This document shows, in pieces, positions 4,334-11,543 of a DNA stretch of 41,291 bases. The notes below the pieces were generated by a model, which was given only the letters and a program-made list of their open reading frames with translations, had not been told where the DNA came from and searched no databases. The DNA comes from a virus (Duplodnaviria; Heunggongvirae; Uroviricota; Caudoviricetes): the IMG/VR virus record IMGVR_UViG_2537562194_000035; one strand, written 5' to 3'. Position 1 is the first letter of the stretch, and each line of letters begins with the position of its first letter. The position numbers and the translations under genes were made by a program.

Positions 4334-4588
4334 ATGAATATGCAATCCTGCGGTAACAAAATGAATTTATTCGACTCCCTGAACAGCGCGCGCCGTCTGA
4401 CCGAACTTGCCGGTGCGGTACTGGAACGCAGTAAGCGCTATCCGCAACGTTTTGCACTGAAAACCACGCCGCCGGTAGGCAACGTGCAGGGAACCGGTGA
4501 AATTGAAATCACCATACAGACCAACGGCCTGCGCCGCCGTGTGAAGGCCACCCGCATCAGCGGCTGCACGGTTTACTGGGAGGTGTGA
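4334..4588 (+). CDS. Hypothetical early protein
   Basis: ORF with GAGGTG SD before ATG 4334 (track start 4322 also possible). Confidence 0.5.
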   Translation: MNMQSCGNKMNLFDSLNSARRLTELAGAVLERSKRYPQRFALKTTPPVGNVQGTGEIEITIQTNGLRRRVKATRISGCTVYWEV

Positions 4589-4589
4589 G

Positions 4590-4871
4590 GTGAAAAAAAA
4601 TCTCATTGCATGGGCGTGGTCGAGTGGTCTTATTGAGTTTGGTTACGTCCTGCCGGAAGGTGCATTGCCGATAGTTGCCGGAAAGCCTGCCACGGTACGG
4701 CATGTGATTGAGGTTATGGCGCGTCATGGACGTGATGAACAGGAGCAGTTACTGGTTCCGGGGATACCGGAAGCGGTGACGGAGGAAGAAGCCTTTAATG
4801 CCATGATTCGGTTCTGCCGTGAGGTCAGACGCCGGGTCAGTTATCCAAACAGAACGAGGACCAGAGGATGA
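4590..4871 (+). CDS. Hypothetical early protein
   Basis: 93-aa ORF, GTG start preceded by GGGAGG; tightly packed in the early operon. Confidence 0.5.
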   Translation: MKKNLIAWAWSSGLIEFGYVLPEGALPIVAGKPATVRHVIEVMARHGRDEQEQLLVPGIPEAVTEEEAFNAMIRFCREVRRRVSYPNRTRTRG

Positions 4872-5140
4872 GTAAAGTCGTACGCATTATTTTCGAATAC
4901 AAGGAGCACGTTATCCATAAAAACGCTGATGGAACAGTGCGCATGGGGGTAAGTCTGGACATACGTTCAACCGGGATAAAGCAGAAAGGTGATGGACCCG
5001 CCATGATTTTTGGGGTGGTTATGCTCGCGGAAAGCAGAGACTTTGCTGAACTTGTGGCAATGAAAGCCAGTGCGCTCATGAAAGATATGAGCATGCGTTC
5101 CGGGGTTATTAAAGGTAATGAATTTAATCAGCAGGGGTAA
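4868..5140 (+). CDS. Hypothetical early protein, paralogue 1 (N-term MSKVVRIIFEYKEH)
   Basis: ORF with GAGGA SD; N-terminus near-identical to the next gene. Confidence 0.6.
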   Translation: MSKVVRIIFEYKEHVIHKNADGTVRMGVSLDIRSTGIKQKGDGPAMIFGVVMLAESRDFAELVAMKASALMKDMSMRSGVIKGNEFNQQG

Positions 5141-5144
5141 TTCC

Positions 5145-5438
5145 ATGAGCAAAGTACGCGTTATTTTTGAATTTAAGCATGTTTCGCATGACGAAAAACC
5201 GGCAGGCAATGACTGTGTTGAAGTGCATGAAAAGATTGGTGTGGATGTAAAAACAGAACGTGATACGAATAACAGGCCGACGTCACTCTGTGGCGTTTAT
5301 GCAAGTATTCTCCAGTATCACAGTCCTGAAATTATTCAGTTTCTCTCAGCGGAATTTCAGGCATCTGTACAGGCTTTTGGGGCGGATGCCATCATTAAAC
5401 GCCACCGCGTGCATAAAGCATCAGGCACACTGCAATAA
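5145..5438 (+). CDS. Hypothetical early protein, paralogue 2 (N-term MSKVRVIFEFKHV)
   Basis: ATG 5145 preceded by AGGGG; track ORF starts upstream at 5118 but the paralogous N-terminus begins at 5145. Confidence 0.6.
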   Translation: MSKVRVIFEFKHVSHDEKPAGNDCVEVHEKIGVDVKTERDTNNRPTSLCGVYASILQYHSPEIIQFLSAEFQASVQAFGADAIIKRHRVHKASGTLQ

Positions 5439-5449
5439 GGAAAAACAAA

Positions 5450-5980
5450 ATGGCTAAACGTGTTACAAAATTAAAGGCCGCAGCCGAGGCTGCACCGCAG
5501 ACCCGCGAAGAAGTCAGCCGCGATATCCGTACCCTGGGCGATATTCAGCGAGAGGCGCTACGGCTGGAAACGGCGATGAATGATGAAGTGGCAGAAATCA
5601 CCGCCCGTTATACGCCGCAGATTGAAAACCTTAAAAAAGAAATCAAAGTGCTTTTTAAGGGGATTCAGGACTGGTGCAAAACCAACCGCGATGAGCTGAC
5701 GAACGGCGGCAAAACCAAAACAGCCAATCTGACCACCGGAACAGTGTCATGGCGGCTGGGAAATCCATCATGCAGCGTCAGCCGTGATGTGGAAGGTGTG
5801 ATTGAAATGCTGCGCCGTATGGGGCTTGAGCGATTCATCCGCACGAAAGAGGAAGTGAACAAGGAAGCGGTCCTAGCGGAGCCGGATGCAGTGAAAGGCA
5901 TTGCCGGTATTAAGGTGAATAAAGGCGCTGAAAGTTTTTATGTCGAGCCTTTTGAACAGGACGCCGGACTGAATAAATAA
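5450..5980 (+). CDS. gam: Host-nuclease inhibitor Gam (Ku-like DNA-end binding)
   Basis: 176 aa with extensive similarity to Mu Gam (e.g. ...NRDELTNGGKTKTANL..., ...FIRTKEEVNKEA..., C-terminal PFEQDAG). Confidence 0.9.
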   Translation: MAKRVTKLKAAAEAAPQTREEVSRDIRTLGDIQREALRLETAMNDEVAEITARYTPQIENLKKEIKVLFKGIQDWCKTNRDELTNGGKTKTANLTTGTVSWRLGNPSCSVSRDVEGVIEMLRRMGLERFIRTKEEVNKEAVLAEPDAVKGIAGIKVNKGAESFYVEPFEQDAGLNK

Positions 5981-6077
5981 CACCGCATTAAATCTTTAAA
6001 TATCACATCGTTTTAAGTATGGCGCTCGCGTCAGGGGACTGCCTGCGCCTGTAAACTGAAAATAAGGAACAGGATAT

Positions 6078-6620
6078 ATGGCATATTTTTATTTCAAATT
6101 AGACCGTGTGCAGACAAATAAATATTTCACCAAATATCAACAGACTGTTTTACCGCTACGCAACAGTATTCTTCGGGCATTACTGAAAAATACAGGCGCT
6201 GCCGGATTGCGCTTAAAGCCGTTTGCCATGGACGTAATCAGTGAGTTTTATTTTTCTGGTGCTCTGCCTGCGGGCTGGCGTAAGCGCGATGATGTGGCTT
6301 TTATCGGGGACGGACCGTGCTTTATTGCCAGACCTGATGAGTCATGCCCTGAAGGACCGGCGATTGCCGCAATGATTGAAGCCGCTGAACGCGAGTTAAG
6401 AAAGCGTCCTGATTTCCTTGTCTGGCTCTGTGAAAAGCTGGGGGTAATGAGAATCCCCTCCATGTTTAACATGGACTCCTGGTGGACCCCGTCGCTCTCC
6501 CGTGATGCCCTGTGCGTGGTGTTTAAAGTAGGCGCTTATGGCAGGGAAATAAAAGGGGGTATTCCTGAAGAATGCCAGGAGATTAAACATTCTGAATATG
6601 TGGCGCTGACGGAGGAATAA
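6078..6620 (+). CDS. Hypothetical protein, first gene of coupled early block
   Basis: 180-aa ORF with AAGGAACAGG SD after a 97-bp gap; no motif recognised. Confidence 0.55.
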   Translation: MAYFYFKLDRVQTNKYFTKYQQTVLPLRNSILRALLKNTGAAGLRLKPFAMDVISEFYFSGALPAGWRKRDDVAFIGDGPCFIARPDESCPEGPAIAAMIEAAERELRKRPDFLVWLCEKLGVMRIPSMFNMDSWWTPSLSRDALCVVFKVGAYGREIKGGIPEECQEIKHSEYVALTEE

Positions 6621-6623
6621 TTC

Positions 6624-7157
6624 ATGATTGGTGCAAAAGTGCTTGAAGGGGTTAAAAACTGGCTGAGTATTTACGGGCGTCTGACCTGCGGCATTCTGGC
6701 TGAAAAAATGAATATGCCGCCATCCTCGATGGTTTATTTTCTGCGTGATGCGGTCGATGCCGGGGTGCTGACGGAATGTAACGGTTTTTATGATATTCCG
6801 CGTCCCCGCCCGGTGCAGCCGGTTCGTCGCAAATGCAGCCAGGAAGGTGCGGCTGATGATGTTCAGTGGTGCAGCTTCAGAAAATCCCTGCCGTGGATTG
6901 AGGGGCATGATATTCCGTCAATGGCGTGGGAATTTGCTCAGGGCGTTCTGACCTGTGAAACCGTTTATGTGGTGGCTGAAGTTGATGAGCAGGCCATGAA
7001 AGAAGGCGTGCCCCAGTTTGTGATGGCGTATATCGACATACGCCTGGGTGTCATTATCTGCGGTTTAAGCGGCTGGAATATCACCTCGCGCGTTCTGCGT
7101 TACCTGATTGTTGACCGGACGGCCGCGCCTGCCGGGATATCTGCGGAGGTGGCGTAA
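6624..7157 (+). CDS. Hypothetical protein
   Basis: 177-aa ORF starting 4 nt after the previous stop. Confidence 0.55.
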   Translation: MIGAKVLEGVKNWLSIYGRLTCGILAEKMNMPPSSMVYFLRDAVDAGVLTECNGFYDIPRPRPVQPVRRKCSQEGAADDVQWCSFRKSLPWIEGHDIPSMAWEFAQGVLTCETVYVVAEVDEQAMKEGVPQFVMAYIDIRLGVIICGLSGWNITSRVLRYLIVDRTAAPAGISAEVA

Positions 7158-7672
7158 TGTTCTTTAAAACATCAAACCCTTCCGCGCTGGCCGCGTGGCA
7201 AAAATATCAGCAGGACTGCCAGAAAGTTAAGGATGAGGCAAAACGCCTTGAGGCCGTGCTGAATGTTGCGTGCCGGTCGGTATTTGTATCCGGTATCAGT
7301 GGCTTTTGTTTTAAAGGGCTGCGCTTTATGGATGACAAATATCCTTTTCATCGCGACTTATGGCGAAAACCGACTGCGTCGAATGGCTGGAGCTGCACAC
7401 CGCGCACATCACGTATTCCCAAAGCCCTGCGCGTTGCCTCTGACGAACTTAACAGTCTGTGGCGTGAATATTCGCCCGTCACGTATGCCAGAACCGATGC
7501 ACTGTTGTTCTGGCTGGGTATTGATTTCTCGGCAATCATGTTTGGCCCTGTGAAGTGGTTCTGCGTTGACGATGTGATTTACCTTGAGTGCGGCGTAAAA
7601 CCCGCAAATCAGAAAATGACCGAAATTCTGTCTGATGAGTTTTATGCTGCTGAAAAGCGAGTCAGGGGGTGA
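7157..7672 (+). CDS. Hypothetical protein
   Basis: 171-aa ORF; start overlaps the previous stop. Confidence 0.55.
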   Translation: MFFKTSNPSALAAWQKYQQDCQKVKDEAKRLEAVLNVACRSVFVSGISGFCFKGLRFMDDKYPFHRDLWRKPTASNGWSCTPRTSRIPKALRVASDELNSLWREYSPVTYARTDALLFWLGIDFSAIMFGPVKWFCVDDVIYLECGVKPANQKMTEILSDEFYAAEKRVRG

Positions 7673-7675
7673 TGC

Positions 7676-8227
7676 ATGATGATATTACAACCCATGGGGA
7701 GAAAAGGCCGTGCACCCGCTCATGTTCGCGCATGGACACCTGAAGAAGATGCGCTGCTGATTGCGCTTTATCCATCCACCCCGGTTAAGGATATTGCTGT
7801 CAGGATAAAAAGAAGTTTCTGGGGTGTACATAACCGGATTGTTTTATTACGCGGTACTTACCCGGAGTTGCTCAAATGCAAACGCCTCAGATTTAAACCT
7901 GATGAAGATAAATTTATCCGAAAAAATGCCAGAACAATGACCGGTAAGCAAATAGGAGAATATCTGGGGCGAGACCGGGATTCTGTCCACAATCGGGCGC
8001 GATATATTGGCGTAAGCATGAAAAAATACGGAGAGTTGCTGCCCTTCACCCGCATACCTGACGATGATGTTCGTCTTATTCGTGAATTACGGGATGCTGA
8101 ATCACCACGGCGTCTTACCTTTAGGGAAATCGGCGAGAAATTTGAATTATCCGAGGGCACGGTGAGTTTTATTTATCACCGTCGTCGGACTGCCGAAGAT
8201 GTTGTATTACGGGAATTAATGCCATGA
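7676..8227 (+). CDS. Putative DNA-binding protein with three tandem HTH/Myb-like repeats
   Basis: 183 aa; three repeats of a W/F-x-P-E/D-E-D...helix pattern (WTPEEDALLIALY..., FKPDEDKFIRKN..., IPDDDVRLIRELR...LTFREIGEKFELSEGTVSFI). Confidence 0.5.
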   Translation: MMILQPMGRKGRAPAHVRAWTPEEDALLIALYPSTPVKDIAVRIKRSFWGVHNRIVLLRGTYPELLKCKRLRFKPDEDKFIRKNARTMTGKQIGEYLGRDRDSVHNRARYIGVSMKKYGELLPFTRIPDDDVRLIRELRDAESPRRLTFREIGEKFELSEGTVSFIYHRRRTAEDVVLRELMP

Positions 8228-8475
8228 TAACGACATTATTTGTTGAATCAGATGAACCCCTTGTGTGTGCCGTCGGAATGCCGGTCTGTGGCGGAACGCT
8301 GACCGGTGTTTATTTCGGGGATTTGCGCGGTTATCCCTGGCATTCACTGAATGATGCTTTCCCGCCTGATATGGAGGCTGTCGTGCTGATTGTTCAGTAT
8401 GGTGACCAACAGGAACTGCGCATCGGCCATATGGGGTATGAAGGCTTTTTTATTGATGAAGAAACCGGAGCCTGA
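8224..8475 (+). pseudogene. Early gene truncated at its 3' end by the IS629-like insertion
   Basis: Reading frame runs into the IS left terminus, whose TGA supplies the stop. With the IS and one GCC copy removed, the frame continues about 20 codons to a TGA at 9846-9848 overlapping the next gene's ATG. Confidence 0.7.
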
Positions 8476-8526
8476 ACCGCCCCGGAAATCCTGGAGACTA
8501 AACTCCCTGAGAAAGAGGTAAACAGG

Positions 8527-8853
8527 ATGACTAAAAATACTCGTTTTTCCCCCGAAGTCCGTCAGCGGGCGATTCGTATGGTTCTGGAAAGTCAGGATGA
8601 ATATGACTCACAGTGGGCGGCAATTTGTTCCATTGCCCCAAAGATTGGCTGTACGCCGGAGACTCTGCGTGTCTGGGTTCGCCAGCATGAGCGGGATACC
8701 GGGGGCGGTGATGGTGGGCTCACCAGCGCTGAACGTCAGCGTCTGAAAGAGCTGGAACGTGAAAATCGTGAACTGCGCCGCAGTAACGATATCCTTCGCC
8801 AGGCTTCCGCTTATTTTGCGAAGGCGGAGTTCGACCGCCTCTGGAAAAAATGA
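8527..8853 (+). CDS. IS629-like transposase OrfA (HTH, leucine-zipper region)
   Basis: 108 aa, [22 protein letters not shown]..., recognised from memory as IS629/IS1203 OrfA. Confidence 0.9.
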
Positions 8854-9740
8854 TGCCACTGCTGGATAAGCTGCGTGAGCAGTACGGGGTCGGACCGGTA
8901 TGCAGCGAACTGCATATTGCCCCGTCAACGTATTACCATTGTCAGCAACAGCGACATCATCCGGATAAACGCAGTGCCCGTGCGCAGCACGACGACTGGC
9001 TGAAGAGAGAGATACAGCGCGTATACGATGAAAATCATCAGGTGTACGGTGTGCGTAAAGTCTGGCGTCAGTTGTTACGGGAAGGAATCAGGGTGGCCAG
9101 ATGTACAGTGGCACGTCTCATGGCGGTTATGGGACTTGCCGGTGTTCTCCGGGGTAAAAAGGTCCGTACGACCATCAGCCGGAAAGCCGTTGCCGCAGGC
9201 GACCGCGTAAACCGTCAGTTCGTGGCAGAACGACCTGACCAGCTGTGGGTGGCTGATTTTACTTACGTCAGCACATGGCAGGGCTTCGTCTATGTGGCGT
9301 TTATCATTGATGTGTTTGCCGGATACATCGTGGGGTGGCGGGTCTCATCGTCTATGGAAACGACATTCGTGCTGGATGCGCTGGAGCAGGCGTTGTGGGC
9401 CCGTCGTCCGTCTGGCACCATCCATCACAGCGATAAAGGCTCTCAGTATGTGTCACTGGCCTATACGGAGCGACTAAAAGAAGCCGGATTACTGGCATCA
9501 ACAGGGAGTACAGGCGACTCGTATGACAACGCGATGGCTGAGAGCATCAATGGTCTTTACAAAGCGGAGGTAATACACCGTAAGAGCTGGAAAAACCGTG
9601 CAGAAGTGGAACTGGCCACACTAACGTGGGTGGACTGGTATAACAATCGACGATTGCTGGGAAGGCTGGGCCATACTCCTCCGGCAGAAGCAGAAAAAGC
9701 TTATTATGCTTCCATCGGAAACGATGATCTGGCAGCCTGA
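8850..9740 (+). CDS. IS629-like transposase OrfB (DDE catalytic domain)
   Basis: 296 aa; overlaps orfA at an A6 run (8845-8850), a likely programmed -1 frameshift site for an OrfAB fusion. Confidence 0.9.
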
Positions 9741-9844
9741 GTTCACAGATAAAACACTCTCCAGGAAACCCGGGGCGGTTCAGCCTGCCTTGAAGATGAG
9801 GACGGACAGGTGACGCACTGGTGCCATATTTCAGCTTTACCGGA

Positions 9845-10213
9845 ATGACGGGAGGTGAATGCGTGAGAAGTTATATTGATAATGAAAAACTGAAGACAAT
9901 CAGCGACTGTCTTAGCTTGCTGGCAAAAATAAAAGAAACCATTGAAGAGATTAAATTTCAGCTTGAATACGAACCCTGTGGCGATGATACATTGCGTAAC
10001 TCTGCCAGAAAAGCACTGGCTGTCTTTCAGAAACAACGCCGGACTGTTGAATACCGCCTTGCTGTATTGCGCCAGGAGGAAAAGGAAAGAAATATAAGAC
10101 GTCATGAACTCGTTAATGATTTTCTTGTTCGTGAATTAAAGGAGCGTGTGCCGGAGTCGGTATTTTTTGAGTGTGAGGCTGTTGCCCGTAGCAAAGCACT
10201 GGAAACTGATTAA
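9845..10213 (+). CDS. Hypothetical early protein
   Basis: ATG 9845 overlaps the reconstructed stop of the interrupted upstream gene (ATGA); the track ORF begins at 9821 only because of the IS-induced frame change. Confidence 0.5.
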   Translation: MTGGECVRSYIDNEKLKTISDCLSLLAKIKETIEEIKFQLEYEPCGDDTLRNSARKALAVFQKQRRTVEYRLAVLRQEEKERNIRRHELVNDFLVRELKERVPESVFFECEAVARSKALETD

Positions 10214-10225
10214 ACAGGCAGGTGA

Positions 10226-10561
10226 ATGATGAGTATTGAATTAAGATCGTCTTATGAATATCGTAAAATTCTCATCGCCGGAGGCATGAAACCGGAAGAT
10301 GCAGAAAAAATCGTTTCTTTTATGGATAAAGAATGTGACAAACGGGATATGCCAGAAATTATTATGGATGACATGATTCTGCATTCAGCCGTAGCGTTAA
10401 GCCCATTATGGATTGTGCATTCTCTTGCTGAAATTGCCAAAGGCACCGATAAACAGGCAGCTGTTGCTGCCCTTCAGACGCTTAATGAAATGCGTATATC
10501 TCCACGCCCGACATTAATACATATGATTCTGTCCAGCATGGAGGATAAAGCAAATGAATAG
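10226..10561 (+). CDS. Hypothetical early protein
   Basis: 111-aa ORF with AGGTGA SD. Confidence 0.5.
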   Translation: MMSIELRSSYEYRKILIAGGMKPEDAEKIVSFMDKECDKRDMPEIIMDDMILHSAVALSPLWIVHSLAEIAKGTDKQAAVAALQTLNEMRISPRPTLIHMILSSMEDKANE

Positions 10562-10751
10562 TCTACCCGCTGGATGGGCGCGGCCACTAATGGCCAGGAA
10601 GCATCATTTTTTTAAAACAGGCGAAAATATCAGTATATGTGGACGGTGGTTATATCTGGCTCATAATCGCGAGCCGGATACATTTGAAAGCCCTGATGAC
10701 TGTGCCGAATGCCGCAGAAGACTGAATAAGGAGAAAGATAATGGACAGTAG
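10554..10751 (+). CDS. Small hypothetical protein with C-terminal Cys cluster (DCAECRR)
   Basis: 65-aa ORF with GGAGGA SD. Confidence 0.45.
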   Translation: MNSLPAGWARPLMARKHHFFKTGENISICGRWLYLAHNREPDTFESPDDCAECRRRLNKEKDNGQ

Positions 10752-11037
10752 TTCGCAGTTGTTCTGGTATTTATATATCACATCCTTTTTCGGTGCATTC
10801 GTCATTACACGATGGCTGTGCCGGAAAGTTATCAGTATTTTTCATAAAAAATACCTGATTGGGCAGGCTGCGACTTCTCTGATTAATGCACTGGCCAGAT
10901 ATCATAAGGGGGAATGCTACTCAAGAATAAAAACTGATGATGGTTTTAATATTTTTGTGATTCCTCCGGAGTATCGGGTTCAGCTCGATCGGGAAAATAA
11001 TACCTATCATATCCGCAGGAGTGTTGATACAGCATGA
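10741..11037 (+). CDS. Hypothetical protein with N-terminal transmembrane helix
   Basis: 98 aa, AGGAG SD; hydrophobic stretch LFWYLYITSFFGAFVITRWL. Confidence 0.5.
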   Translation: MDSSSQLFWYLYITSFFGAFVITRWLCRKVISIFHKKYLIGQAATSLINALARYHKGECYSRIKTDDGFNIFVIPPEYRVQLDRENNTYHIRRSVDTA

Positions 11038-11543
11038 GAGGGAAACTGATATCTGCCATTCATGTGGCAAAACGCGAGCTTGCCCTGGATGATGAAACCT
11101 ACACATCCGTACTACTGGCGGTCACCGGCAAAACCAGCTGCCGGGATATGTCACCGGATGAGTTATCCCGCGTGCTGGATGTTTTCAAAAAACGCGGTTT
11201 TAAAGTGCGTCAGAACCCGGTTAACCGGGCCTTAAAACCGGGTACGGTGACCGCTAAAATTCGCGCCATCTGGAAGGTGATGCACCGGCAGGGCTTTATC
11301 TCTGATGGTGCGGAAACCGCCCTTAACCGCTGGGTGAAATCGCAGACGGCCGCGCAAAACGGCGGCGAAGGTGTGGCAAACTGGCAGTGGCTGGAGCAAC
11401 ACCCCGCCCTGGCCTCAGATGTGCTGGAGCGTCTCAAGCGATGGCACCGCCGCAAAATGCTGGCCGCGATGGGAATGCCCGAACGCACGCTGATGGGGTA
11501 TGACGCCGTTTGCAGGCAGTATGAAAAATCACTTCCCCGTTAA
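11034..11543 (+). CDS. GemA-like protein (Mu gp16 family)
   Basis: 169-aa ORF; position just before Mor/C and general resemblance to the Mu GemA family; assignment from memory, not verified. Confidence 0.55.
   Translation: MRGKLISAIHVAKRELALDDETYTSVLLAVTGKTSCRDMSPDELSRVLDVFKKRGFKVRQNPVNRALKPGTVTAKIRAIWKVMHRQGFISDGAETALNRWVKSQTAAQNGGEGVANWQWLEQHPALASDVLERLKRWHRRKMLAAMGMPERTLMGYDAVCRQYEKSLPR

Follow-up and report, generated by a model that had tools for sequence, protein, structure and literature searches.

The five tightly packed genes at positions 6,078 to 8,475 of the window, the 41,291-nt stretch of viral DNA analyzed here, are best read as a set of genuine, independently exchangeable accessory genes of the region termed semi-essential early (SEE) rather than as one system, a reading to which we assign a probability of roughly three in four. 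Relatives carry these genes in many combinations, which argues against one new system, and the block, which belongs to the long-known SEE region, is an ordinary mosaic of accessory genes in a common STEC prophage and had already been catalogued. Below, we profile the locus, the distribution of its genes among related prophages, and the five predicted proteins (P1 to P5, in order of transcription).

Genomic setting and coding evidence

The window matches a Mu-like prophage in STEC E. coli 95NR1/95JB1 at 100%, and its genes run in the order repressor, ner-like, MuA, MuB, small ORFs, Gam, the block, further small ORFs, GemA and Mor, followed by the lysis and head genes. The preliminary description had placed the five ORFs in a non-essential early interval of a transposable phage, and they indeed sit between Gam and GemA, within the early operon of this Mu-like prophage. 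The block is present in 233 of 5426 complete E. coli genomes; in O157:H7 genomes it is 100% identical, and we take those copies to be Sp18. The window and the Sp18-type prophage are essentially the same element. Sp18 is the Mu-like prophage of E. coli O157:H7 Sakai (PMC4406740). Two Stx phage records annotated with 'inserted Mu-like phage' regions (LC727881 and LC727895) match at ~96% over a wider region. The copy in the window (95NR1/95JB1) differs from these O157:H7 and Stx phage copies by an IS629 insertion in the fifth gene.

[quoted passage not shown] The block occupies the same Gam-GemA operon position as that region (in which gp11 is E10-12, gp12 is E13 and gp9 is E8), and its genes are dispensable and uncharacterized, as in Mu. 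Mu, however, lacks P1 and P5, has only gp11 and gp12 at this position and carries gp9 elsewhere; the cassettes between P5 and GemA also differ, with gp13/gp14/gp15 in Mu and four other small ORFs here.

As first described, the five consecutive ORFs (180, 177, 171, 183 and 83 aa) are closely packed: all lie on the plus strand, with 3-nt gaps or 1-4-nt overlaps between them, and RefSeq annotates the same five CDS. The TAA of P1 is followed by 3 nt and the ATG of P2, P2 and P3 share a TAATG (1-nt overlap), the TGA of P3 is followed by 3 nt and the ATG of P4, and P4 and P5 meet in an ATGA (4-nt overlap). Ahead of each start, within the upstream gene, lies a GGAGG/GGGGG-like Shine-Dalgarno motif, and junctions of +3, -1, +3 and -4 nt, together with these motifs, would permit coupled translation of P1 to P5. 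Such spacing does not distinguish the five genes, because the whole early operon is equally tight, with junctions of -11 to +15 nt from MuB to GemA. The sole real boundary near the block is a 97-nt gap after gam; a search for an internal promoter or terminator delimiting the block returned none that was convincing, and Rfam gave no match across positions 5400-8600.

The post-gam gap (5981..6077, plus strand), which forms the upstream boundary of the block, holds a conserved intergenic element in which an AT-rich segment precedes a hairpin (GGCGC..GCGTCAGGGGAC..GCGCC, at ~6022-6050). This ~97-nt element is common to the window and the Mu SEE region, and is conserved in 39 of 40 distinct post-gam stretches, Mu included, the exception (locus L025) having a fragmented gam. 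Its conservation is independent of whether the next gene is a DUF5420 variant, gp11 or a small ORF. RNAalifold returned a 10-pair hairpin with one compensatory change, and, as no T-run follows it, the hairpin is not a canonical terminator.

The five ORFs are genuine genes, given that each matches a PHROG family (E ~1e-52 to ~1e-104) and that pN/pS is 0.16-0.23 for all five relative to an orthologous locus at ~92-96%. Antisense ORFs at 6399-6908 and 7861-8160 (170 and 100 aa) gave no family matches. NCBIfam returned nothing useful for the five proteins, and PDB searches by sequence gave no match for any of them, nor for a gp11 profile. MIF matches in the PDB sequence search (E~0.2-0.5) were dismissed as chance. 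PADLOC gave no matches for P1, P2, P3 or P5, and for P4 only noise at E~0.01-0.02. We found nothing on these proteins in literature on Mu gp11/gp12 (Mup11/12), DUF5420, or anti-defence functions in Mu-like early regions. The initial characterization of a block of unknown function, devoid of catalytic motifs, is thus consistent with our results, in that the proteins have no recognizable catalytic domain and no member has an experimentally known function; nor does homology to Mu supply one, with P2, P3 and P4 matching the uncharacterized gp11, gp12 and gp9.

Distribution of the five genes among Gam-to-GemA intervals

The intervals come from Enterobacteriaceae prophages that are closely related to one another, with P1, gp12 or gp11 serving as anchor, and the frequencies reported here are uncorrected for phylogeny. 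Among 53 distinct Gam..GemA intervals we distinguished 21 architectures and eight presence/absence combinations of the five genes. The full set occurs in 11; 13 carry gp11 without the other four, 10 carry gp11 and gp12 only, and six carry DUF5420 and gp11 only, while certain intervals run directly from Gam through gp11 to GemA. In the gp11-anchored sample, the full set accounts for 9 of 49 intervals and gp11 without the other four for 13 of 49. Downstream of Gam, P2/gp11 is the one gene that stays constant across this phage group, a constancy that is partly by construction, given the choice of P1, gp12 and gp11 as anchors. The co-functional module proposed in the preliminary description is not supported by this comparison: the ORFs are not conserved together, nor are they gained and lost together.

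The linkage that remains is partial. Every P4 in the gp11-anchored sample was accompanied by gp12 (19/19), and every P5 by P4 (13/13); among the collected loci, P5 without P4 and P4 without P5 were both found, and one locus (L089) carries DUF5420-gp11-P4-P5 without gp12. Given the partial linkage of P4 to gp12 and of P5 to P4, there may be sub-modules within the five.

These data bear most directly on the idea that the five genes constitute one co-translated anti-defence or host-takeover system, whose products would be joined in a complex or pathway. The tight or overlapping junctions, the existence of the full set in 11 of 53 intervals, and an early-operon position typical of takeover functions are what such a system would lead one to expect, but the same tight spacing extends throughout the operon, the genes occur in eight combinations including gp11 alone, Mu has only gp11 and gp12 here with gp9 elsewhere, and nothing in the block matches PADLOC or any characterized family. 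Weakened by the co-occurrence data, this explanation is in our estimate very improbable.

Features of the encoded proteins

P2 (177 aa; 6624..7157, plus strand; phrog_1949, E 2e-104) is the Mu gp11 orthologue, with 67% identity to gp11 over 177 aa in a full-length, collinear alignment. Residues 90-167 match Pfam PF25754 (Gp11_C) at 135.5 bits against a cut-off of 27, over profile positions 1-78 of 78. Like Mu gp11 it lies downstream of Gam, but with P1 intercalated. Weak HTH_20/WH matches in a few gp11-family members make an N-terminal winged helix possible.

P1 (180 aa; 6078..6620, plus strand; phrog_2260), which is absent from Mu, is a divergent member of the DUF5420 superfamily. By score it falls outside Pfam DUF5420 (PF17457), with no match at E<=1 (cut-off 26 bits), and its nearer relatives P0004, P0006 and P0014 reach 12-15 bits, below the same cut-off. 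A profile of the P1 family, however, retrieves 26 representatives, and 19 of 25 aligned sequences match DUF5420 (best E 9e-28), which establishes homology to genuine DUF5420 members at the profile level. Those relatives of P1 that lie at 20-40% identity belong to DUF5420 and have the same length (~180-195 aa); motifs shared across the family are PD.R..EGK, P.FS.W and, at the C-terminus, EIK.SEF.ALTEE. A scan of the genome collection with the DUF5420 alignment gave 51 pattern matches, none of which was confirmed against P1. P1 yields a structure model of high confidence (pLDDT 94), for which no relative among solved structures was found.

P3 (171 aa; 7157..7672, plus strand; phrog_2314, E 1e-85) is the Mu gp12 orthologue, homologous over its full length (54% identity over 169 aa, E 4e-67). 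Precomputed PF26885 assignments exist for its homologues, including a 98%-identical cluster representative (P0015), and its structure model is of low confidence (pLDDT 65). P1 and P3/gp12 appear to be distant paralogues sharing one fold. Aligned by hhalign, P3/gp12 and the DUF5420 alignment are collinear over 159 columns (E 0.0018, with a probability of only 15%), and the order of secondary-structure elements in P3 agrees with that in P1. In BFVD, all five P3 matches with a probability of at least 0.9 fall within the top 11 matches of P1; these BFVD matches are only unnamed or uncharacterized phage proteins, among which Mu gp12 is absent by recognizable name. Direct comparison of P1 with P3, by BLASTP or by hhalign with a shallow P1 alignment, was not significant, and the collinear match was obtained only with the broader DUF5420 alignment.

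DUF5420 genes recur in several contexts. In Mu-like phages they follow Gam, and in an integrase-type prophage the gene comes behind ERF-YqaJ-SSB; elsewhere it follows NinB or a protein with a weak beta-clamp-like match, or lies within a cI-to-Q early-right operon. A bolder reading of these neighborhoods would unite DUF5420 and the Mu gp12 family in a single, previously unrecognized, phage-restricted alpha/beta superfamily, without a solved relative, that is encoded beside DNA-end-binding or recombination genes (Gam, Erf/Exo/SSB, NinB). Its members would act on the way the host processes DNA ends, or on a defence that monitors this process; they might, for instance, protect phages that carry Gam against RecBCD- or Gabija-type surveillance, and gp11 might be their DNA-binding partner. 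We regard this as decidedly unlikely in its entirety.

A related proposal, which we think unlikely, is that gp11 forms a two-component unit with a partner from the DUF5420/gp12 superfamily, whose gene would lie on the upstream side (P1) or on the downstream side (P3), both versions being present in the window. P1 and P3 apparently share one fold and flank gp11; P1 and/or P3 occur in 36 of the 49 gp11-anchored intervals, always directly beside gp11; and the partners occur singly, with DUF5420 but no gp12 in L089, and gp12 but no DUF5420 in Mu. Set against this pairing are the 13 of 49 intervals in which gp11 has neither partner, and the lambdoid-type prophages in which DUF5420 has no neighboring gene with a recorded Gp11_C match.

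P4 (183 aa; 7676..8227, plus strand; pI 10.2, net charge +13), distantly related to Mu gp9 (E8), is a basic protein predicted, from its charge and repeats, to bind DNA. It matches phrog_323 ('transcriptional regulator, D5-like', E 6e-58) and contains tandem repeats of HTH/Myb-like type, the three copies reported for the fourth ORF being moderately supported by repeat z-scores and sub-threshold Pfam matches. Repeat 1 resembles repeat 2 (z=3.9, p~0.005) and repeat 2 resembles repeat 3 (z=3.0, p~0.01), the comparison of repeats 1 and 3 being not significant alone. Separate sub-threshold Pfam matches fall on repeat 1 (Myb), repeat 2 (HTH_11/HTH_23) and repeat 3 (Sigma70_r4/AsnC), short of the curated thresholds (Sigma70_r4 23.3 vs 24.1, Myb 16.9 vs 24.4, HTH_AsnC 21.5 vs 27), and one allele bears the RefSeq name 'SANT/Myb-like DNA-binding domain-containing protein'. 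P4 is 32% identical to Mu gp9 over 101 aa and has the same HTH repeat type; the two differ in that gp9 carries two repeats and is encoded upstream of gam, P4 three repeats and downstream of gp12. Phages of Vibrio, Klebsiella, Mycobacterium and Citrobacter also contain the repeat domain.

P5 (8224..8475, plus strand; phrog_6925, E 2e-52) is truncated to 83 aa in the window, where it is inactivated by IS629. The native protein, intact in IS-free prophages (L002 8825-9136), has 103 aa, a pI of 4.05 and a net charge of -16. The interrupting element, an IS629/IS1203 of the IS3 family (1310 bp; 8473..9782, plus strand), points in the direction of the early operon, shares 99.8-100% identity with the IS629 copies of Stx phages, and is named 'IS3-like element IS1203 family transposase, programmed frameshift' by RefSeq. 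Its termini are TGAACCGCCCCGG, it is flanked by a 3-bp target duplication (GCC; 8470-8472 and 9783-9785), and its terminal TGA provides the stop codon of P5 here. The displaced 3' remnant of the gene (9783..9848, plus strand), collinear with L002 9071-9136, comprises the last 20 codons and the stop, and encodes the conserved C-terminal ...VTHWCHISALPE. IS629 occupies this site in only 2 of 5426 complete genomes (95NR1 and 95JB1). P5 has no match in Pfam, PDB or PADLOC. Its C-terminal ...THW...LPE motif is reminiscent of DUF551; we do not claim P5 as DUF551-like, there being no Pfam match at E<=1.

The charge of native P5 invites the suggestion that at least one of the genes is a stand-alone anti-defence factor, with P5 as a DNA or protein mimic blocking a restriction or nuclease system, or with P1/P3 countering RecBCD- or Gabija-type defence triggered by Gam. 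A net charge of -16 in 103 aa would suit such a mimic, and high turnover with patchy distribution is typical of counter-defence genes. Further, Mu-type Gam and GemA are reported to sensitize phages to Gabija (bioRxiv preprint PMC12407980), for which neighboring genes could compensate. Acidity by itself, however, counts for little; P5 is interrupted in the window and missing from many relatives, and no homology to known anti-defence proteins was found in PADLOC or in PDB sequence searches. We hold this suggestion tentatively, as possible at well below even odds.

Putative roles and significance of the exchangeable early genes

In our preferred reading, of independently exchangeable accessory genes, the block would be transcribed as part of a long early message that starts with ner/A/B, passes through Gam and extends as far as GemA and Mor. 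Functional assignments for P1 to P5 draw on weak HTH matches, net charge and gene neighborhood. The likeliest roles are that P4, and probably P2, associate with DNA and serve as early regulators or nucleoid modulators. P1 (DUF5420-like) and P3 (gp12) would be optional, distant paralogues with one phage-specific alpha/beta fold, and would act as accessory factors in DNA replication, recombination or end-processing, because in unrelated phages DUF5420 genes adjoin Gam, Erf/exonuclease/SSB, NinB or a clamp-like gene. P5 would be an acidic, protein-binding inhibitor or mimic. Each gene would fine-tune lytic growth or host takeover and be individually dispensable, and such dispensability would account for free gain and loss among lineages.

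As it stands little changes, the block being already catalogued. Its analysis nonetheless provides a clearer map of the constant (gp11) and exchangeable genes of the SEE region, and, via a confident fold model, a putative tie between DUF5420 and Mu gp12. Together, gp11 and gp12/DUF5420 constitute defined targets, in the tractable phage Mu, for old SEE phenotypes that have remained unassigned. If any of these genes encode counter-defence factors, then the exchangeable SEE genes would also help to explain how phages of the transposable kind withstand the defences that Gam triggers.

The five genes in the early operon of a Mu-like prophage

The five consecutive plus-strand ORFs between Gam and GemA (P1 to P5, 6078-8475) are all present at the lengths first ascribed to them, and the overlapping or near-abutting junctions of the preliminary description are borne out as TAA-3 nt-ATG, TAATG, TGA-3 nt-ATG and ATGA; at every junction the preceding gene contains a GGAGG-like ribosome-binding site. 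Every member matches a PHROG family (E 1e-52 to 1e-104) and has a pN/pS of 0.16-0.23 relative to an orthologous locus of 92-96% identity, and long antisense ORFs across the block returned no matches in a family search; on these three grounds P1 to P5 are real genes, of the expressed type and under selection, in the early operon of a Mu-like prophage. Close spacing is not peculiar to them, as the whole early operon is equally compact, with junctions of -11 to +15 nt and sizeable gaps only 3' of gam (97 nt) and 3' of gemA (69 nt).

From end to end, the interval 5400-11200 is 100% identical to chromosomal DNA of E. coli 95NR1 and 95JB1; numerous STEC genomes, O157:H7 and O111 among them, also match at 100%, a 1.3-kb insertion excepted. 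RefSeq annotates the matching locus as a Mu-type prophage, in the order repressor, ner-like HTH, Mu transposase, MuB-like AAA ATPase, five small ORFs, Gam, P1 to P5, four small ORFs, GemA ('gp16 family'), Mor, lysozyme and spanins, and head genes; the same DNA appears in two Stx-phage records, LC727881 and LC727895, under the label 'region of the inserted Bacteriophage Mu-like phage'. A search with the block alone (6078-8472) finds it in 233 of 5426 complete E. coli genomes, with at least 80% coverage in 214 of those 233; it belongs to the mosaic accessory DNA of a common prophage and has been catalogued before.

Three further features of the prophage were observed. The small ORF at 4334-4588 aligns with the C-terminal half of Mu Kil at 33% identity, and its homologue in a related contig (L089; 74% identity) bears Pfam PF26843 Kil_protein; the ORF is probably the host-killing, septation-inhibiting gene of the prophage. 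The adjacent small early ORFs at 4868-5140 and 5145-5438 (90 and 97 aa) form a tandem paralogous pair, sharing 33% identity over 55 aa (E 8e-4) and both beginning MSKV(V)R(I/V)IFE(Y/F)K. GC content is 0.43 at 10001-11000, the four-small-ORF cassette 5' of gemA, compared with about 0.50-0.52 over the block and its insertion sequence and about 0.57 in the late genes; together with further low-GC stretches at the left end (1-1000) and beyond 33 kb (33001-41000), this agrees with a recent exchange of accessory cassettes.

The five genes are exchanged independently among relatives

Related loci were drawn from IMG/VR with P1, gp12 (the family of P3) and gp11 (that of P2) as anchors, and annotated by family HMMs and BLAST. 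The resulting 53 distinct Gam-to-GemA intervals display 21 gene orders. Whereas gp11 is present in all 53, in part by construction since it served as an anchor, gp12 occurs in 33, a DUF5420-type gene (the family of P1) in 26, P4 in 22 and P5 in 16. Only 11 intervals contain all five genes; gp11 stands without the other four in 13, with gp12 only in 10 and with DUF5420 only in six, while the remainder combine DUF5420, gp11, gp12 and P4 (six), gp11, gp12, P4 and P5 (four), DUF5420, gp11 and gp12 only (two), or DUF5420, gp11, P4 and P5 (one). The gp11-anchored sample alone gave a similar pattern, with all five genes in 9/49 and gp11 without the other four in 13/49. Some prophages have a direct Gam-gp11-GemA order, the L089 contig reads Gam-DUF5420-gp11-P4-P5 without gp12, and in Salmonella-type loci gp12 is followed directly by P5, without P4. 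P1 itself is variably kept, missing, or swapped for alleles of 23-40% identity, with two copies in one locus, and the cassettes 3' of P5 alternate too. Residual linkage in the gp11-anchored sample, where P4 was never seen without gp12, nor P5 without P4, may stem from common ancestry of close relatives.

The ORFs are thus not conserved together, and the proposal that they constitute one co-functional five-gene module, plausibly a host-takeover or anti-defence system, is not supported. Single genes of the block, P5 especially, could still act against host defences on their own: Mu-type Gam and GemA sensitize phages to Gabija according to a preprint (PMC12407980), which would provide a rationale for counter-measures encoded nearby.

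The gap 3' of gam (5981-6077) is strongly conserved in sequence in Mu, in Sp18-like prophages and in Mu-like ones further removed, whatever gene follows. It comprises TTTTAATTAT, then GGCGC..GCGTCAGGGGAC..GCGCC, with a predicted hairpin at ~6022-6050 of 10 pairs, including one compensatory C-G to U-A change; there is no T-run 3' of the hairpin, and an Rfam search returned no match. This element, a mildly new point, could be an RNA processing site, a protein-binding site, or a recombination hotspot for cassette exchange.

P1, gp11 and gp12

P1 (6078-6620), which is not in Mu, has no match in Pfam, and a word-indexed search recovered just 14 relatives, one of which (38% identity) is named DUF5420. 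A full HMMER profile of the P1 family, run against 1.84 billion cluster representatives, retrieved no more than 26 proteins, and 19 of 25 aligned family sequences match Pfam DUF5420; by way of these relatives, P1 can be placed in a small DUF5420 superfamily, as a divergent member. Beyond Mu-like phages, DUF5420 members lie directly 3' of ERF-YqaJ-(364 aa)-SSB in an integrase-type prophage, 3' of NinB, 3' of a gene with a weak beta-clamp-like match, in a compact early-right operon that lies between a cI-like repressor and Q, and beside DUF1382, DUF4406 and a DNA methylase in an early region. Taken with the position 3' of Gam, these neighbourhoods may tie the family to modules for DNA replication, recombination or end-processing.

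P2 (6624-7157) is the orthologue of Mu gp11 (67% identity, full length), with a Pfam Gp11_C match of 135.5 bits (cut-off 27) and, in only a few family members, weak winged-helix/HTH matches in the N-terminal ~60 residues; all 222 detectable homologues are from E. coli or Salmonella. P3 (7157-7672) is the orthologue of Mu gp12 (54% identity), and its homologues bear PF26885 and are confined to Enterobacteriaceae.

An AlphaFold2 model of P1, fed the DUF5420 alignment, is confident (pLDDT 94.3, pTM 0.86) and runs beta, two alpha, four beta, two alpha, three beta, alpha. For gp12 the model is poor (pLDDT 65; residues 38-82 unreliable) but shows the same element order, and its five BFVD matches at probability >=0.9 all fall within the top 11 for the P1 model. 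By eye, the two proteins have N-terminal YFK/FFK, central PD/PR and C-terminal EIKxSEF/EILSDEF motifs in common, and hhalign matched the DUF5420 alignment to that of gp12 collinearly, end to end, over 159 columns (E 0.0018), at a probability of just 15%. Together these findings suggest a common fold, and P1 and P3 are probably distant paralogues flanking gp11, a relationship that we infer rather than prove. This probable paralogy of DUF5420 and gp12, together with a confidently modelled fold that is without a PDB match, is the other mildly new point. In a Salmonella-type Mu-like locus (L081; IMG/VR contig 2663762818_000004), two tandem DUF5420-like genes at ~5341 and ~5898 (38% and 31% identical to P1) precede gp11 and gp12, so that three consecutive genes of the proposed superfamily are lined up around gp11.

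P4, P5 and the IS629 insertion

P4 (7676-8227; PHROG 323, 'transcriptional regulator, D5-like') is strongly basic (pI 10.2, net charge +13). Its three HTH/Myb-like repeats find moderate support: against shuffles, repeats 1 and 2 score z=3.9 and repeats 2 and 3 z=3.0, each repeat has its own sub-threshold Myb or HTH Pfam match, and one allele is named 'SANT/Myb-like' in RefSeq. The repeat domain is common in unrelated Vibrio, Klebsiella, Mycobacterium and Citrobacter phages. Mu gp9/E8 is 32% identical to P4 over 101 residues; in Mu it is located upstream of gam.

P5 (8224-8475; phrog_6925) is short here because an IS629/IS1203 element (8473-9782, 1310 bp) lies inside it, oriented with operon transcription and flanked by a GCC target duplication at 8470-8472 and 9783-9785. 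The stop codon is the terminal TGA of the element, and the last 20 codons are displaced to 9783-9848; in IS-free prophages the protein has its native 103 aa and is strongly acidic (pI 4.05, net charge -16). Searches of family, structure and defence databases gave no match other than phrog_6925.

We propose that P4, and possibly P2, would bind DNA as early regulators, that P1 and P3 may be accessory factors in DNA metabolism, and that P5 may be an acidic binding or inhibitor protein, presumably non-functional in this copy; such roles would be consistent with the published description of the semi-essential early region of Mu, to which the older phenotypes arm and cim belong. The insertion at the P5 site is found in two genomes only, 95NR1 and 95JB1, and sits 5' of gemA and mor. 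Mor in Mu depends on the early transcript; if the same holds here, IS629 could be polar on middle and late activation, and the prophage crippled.
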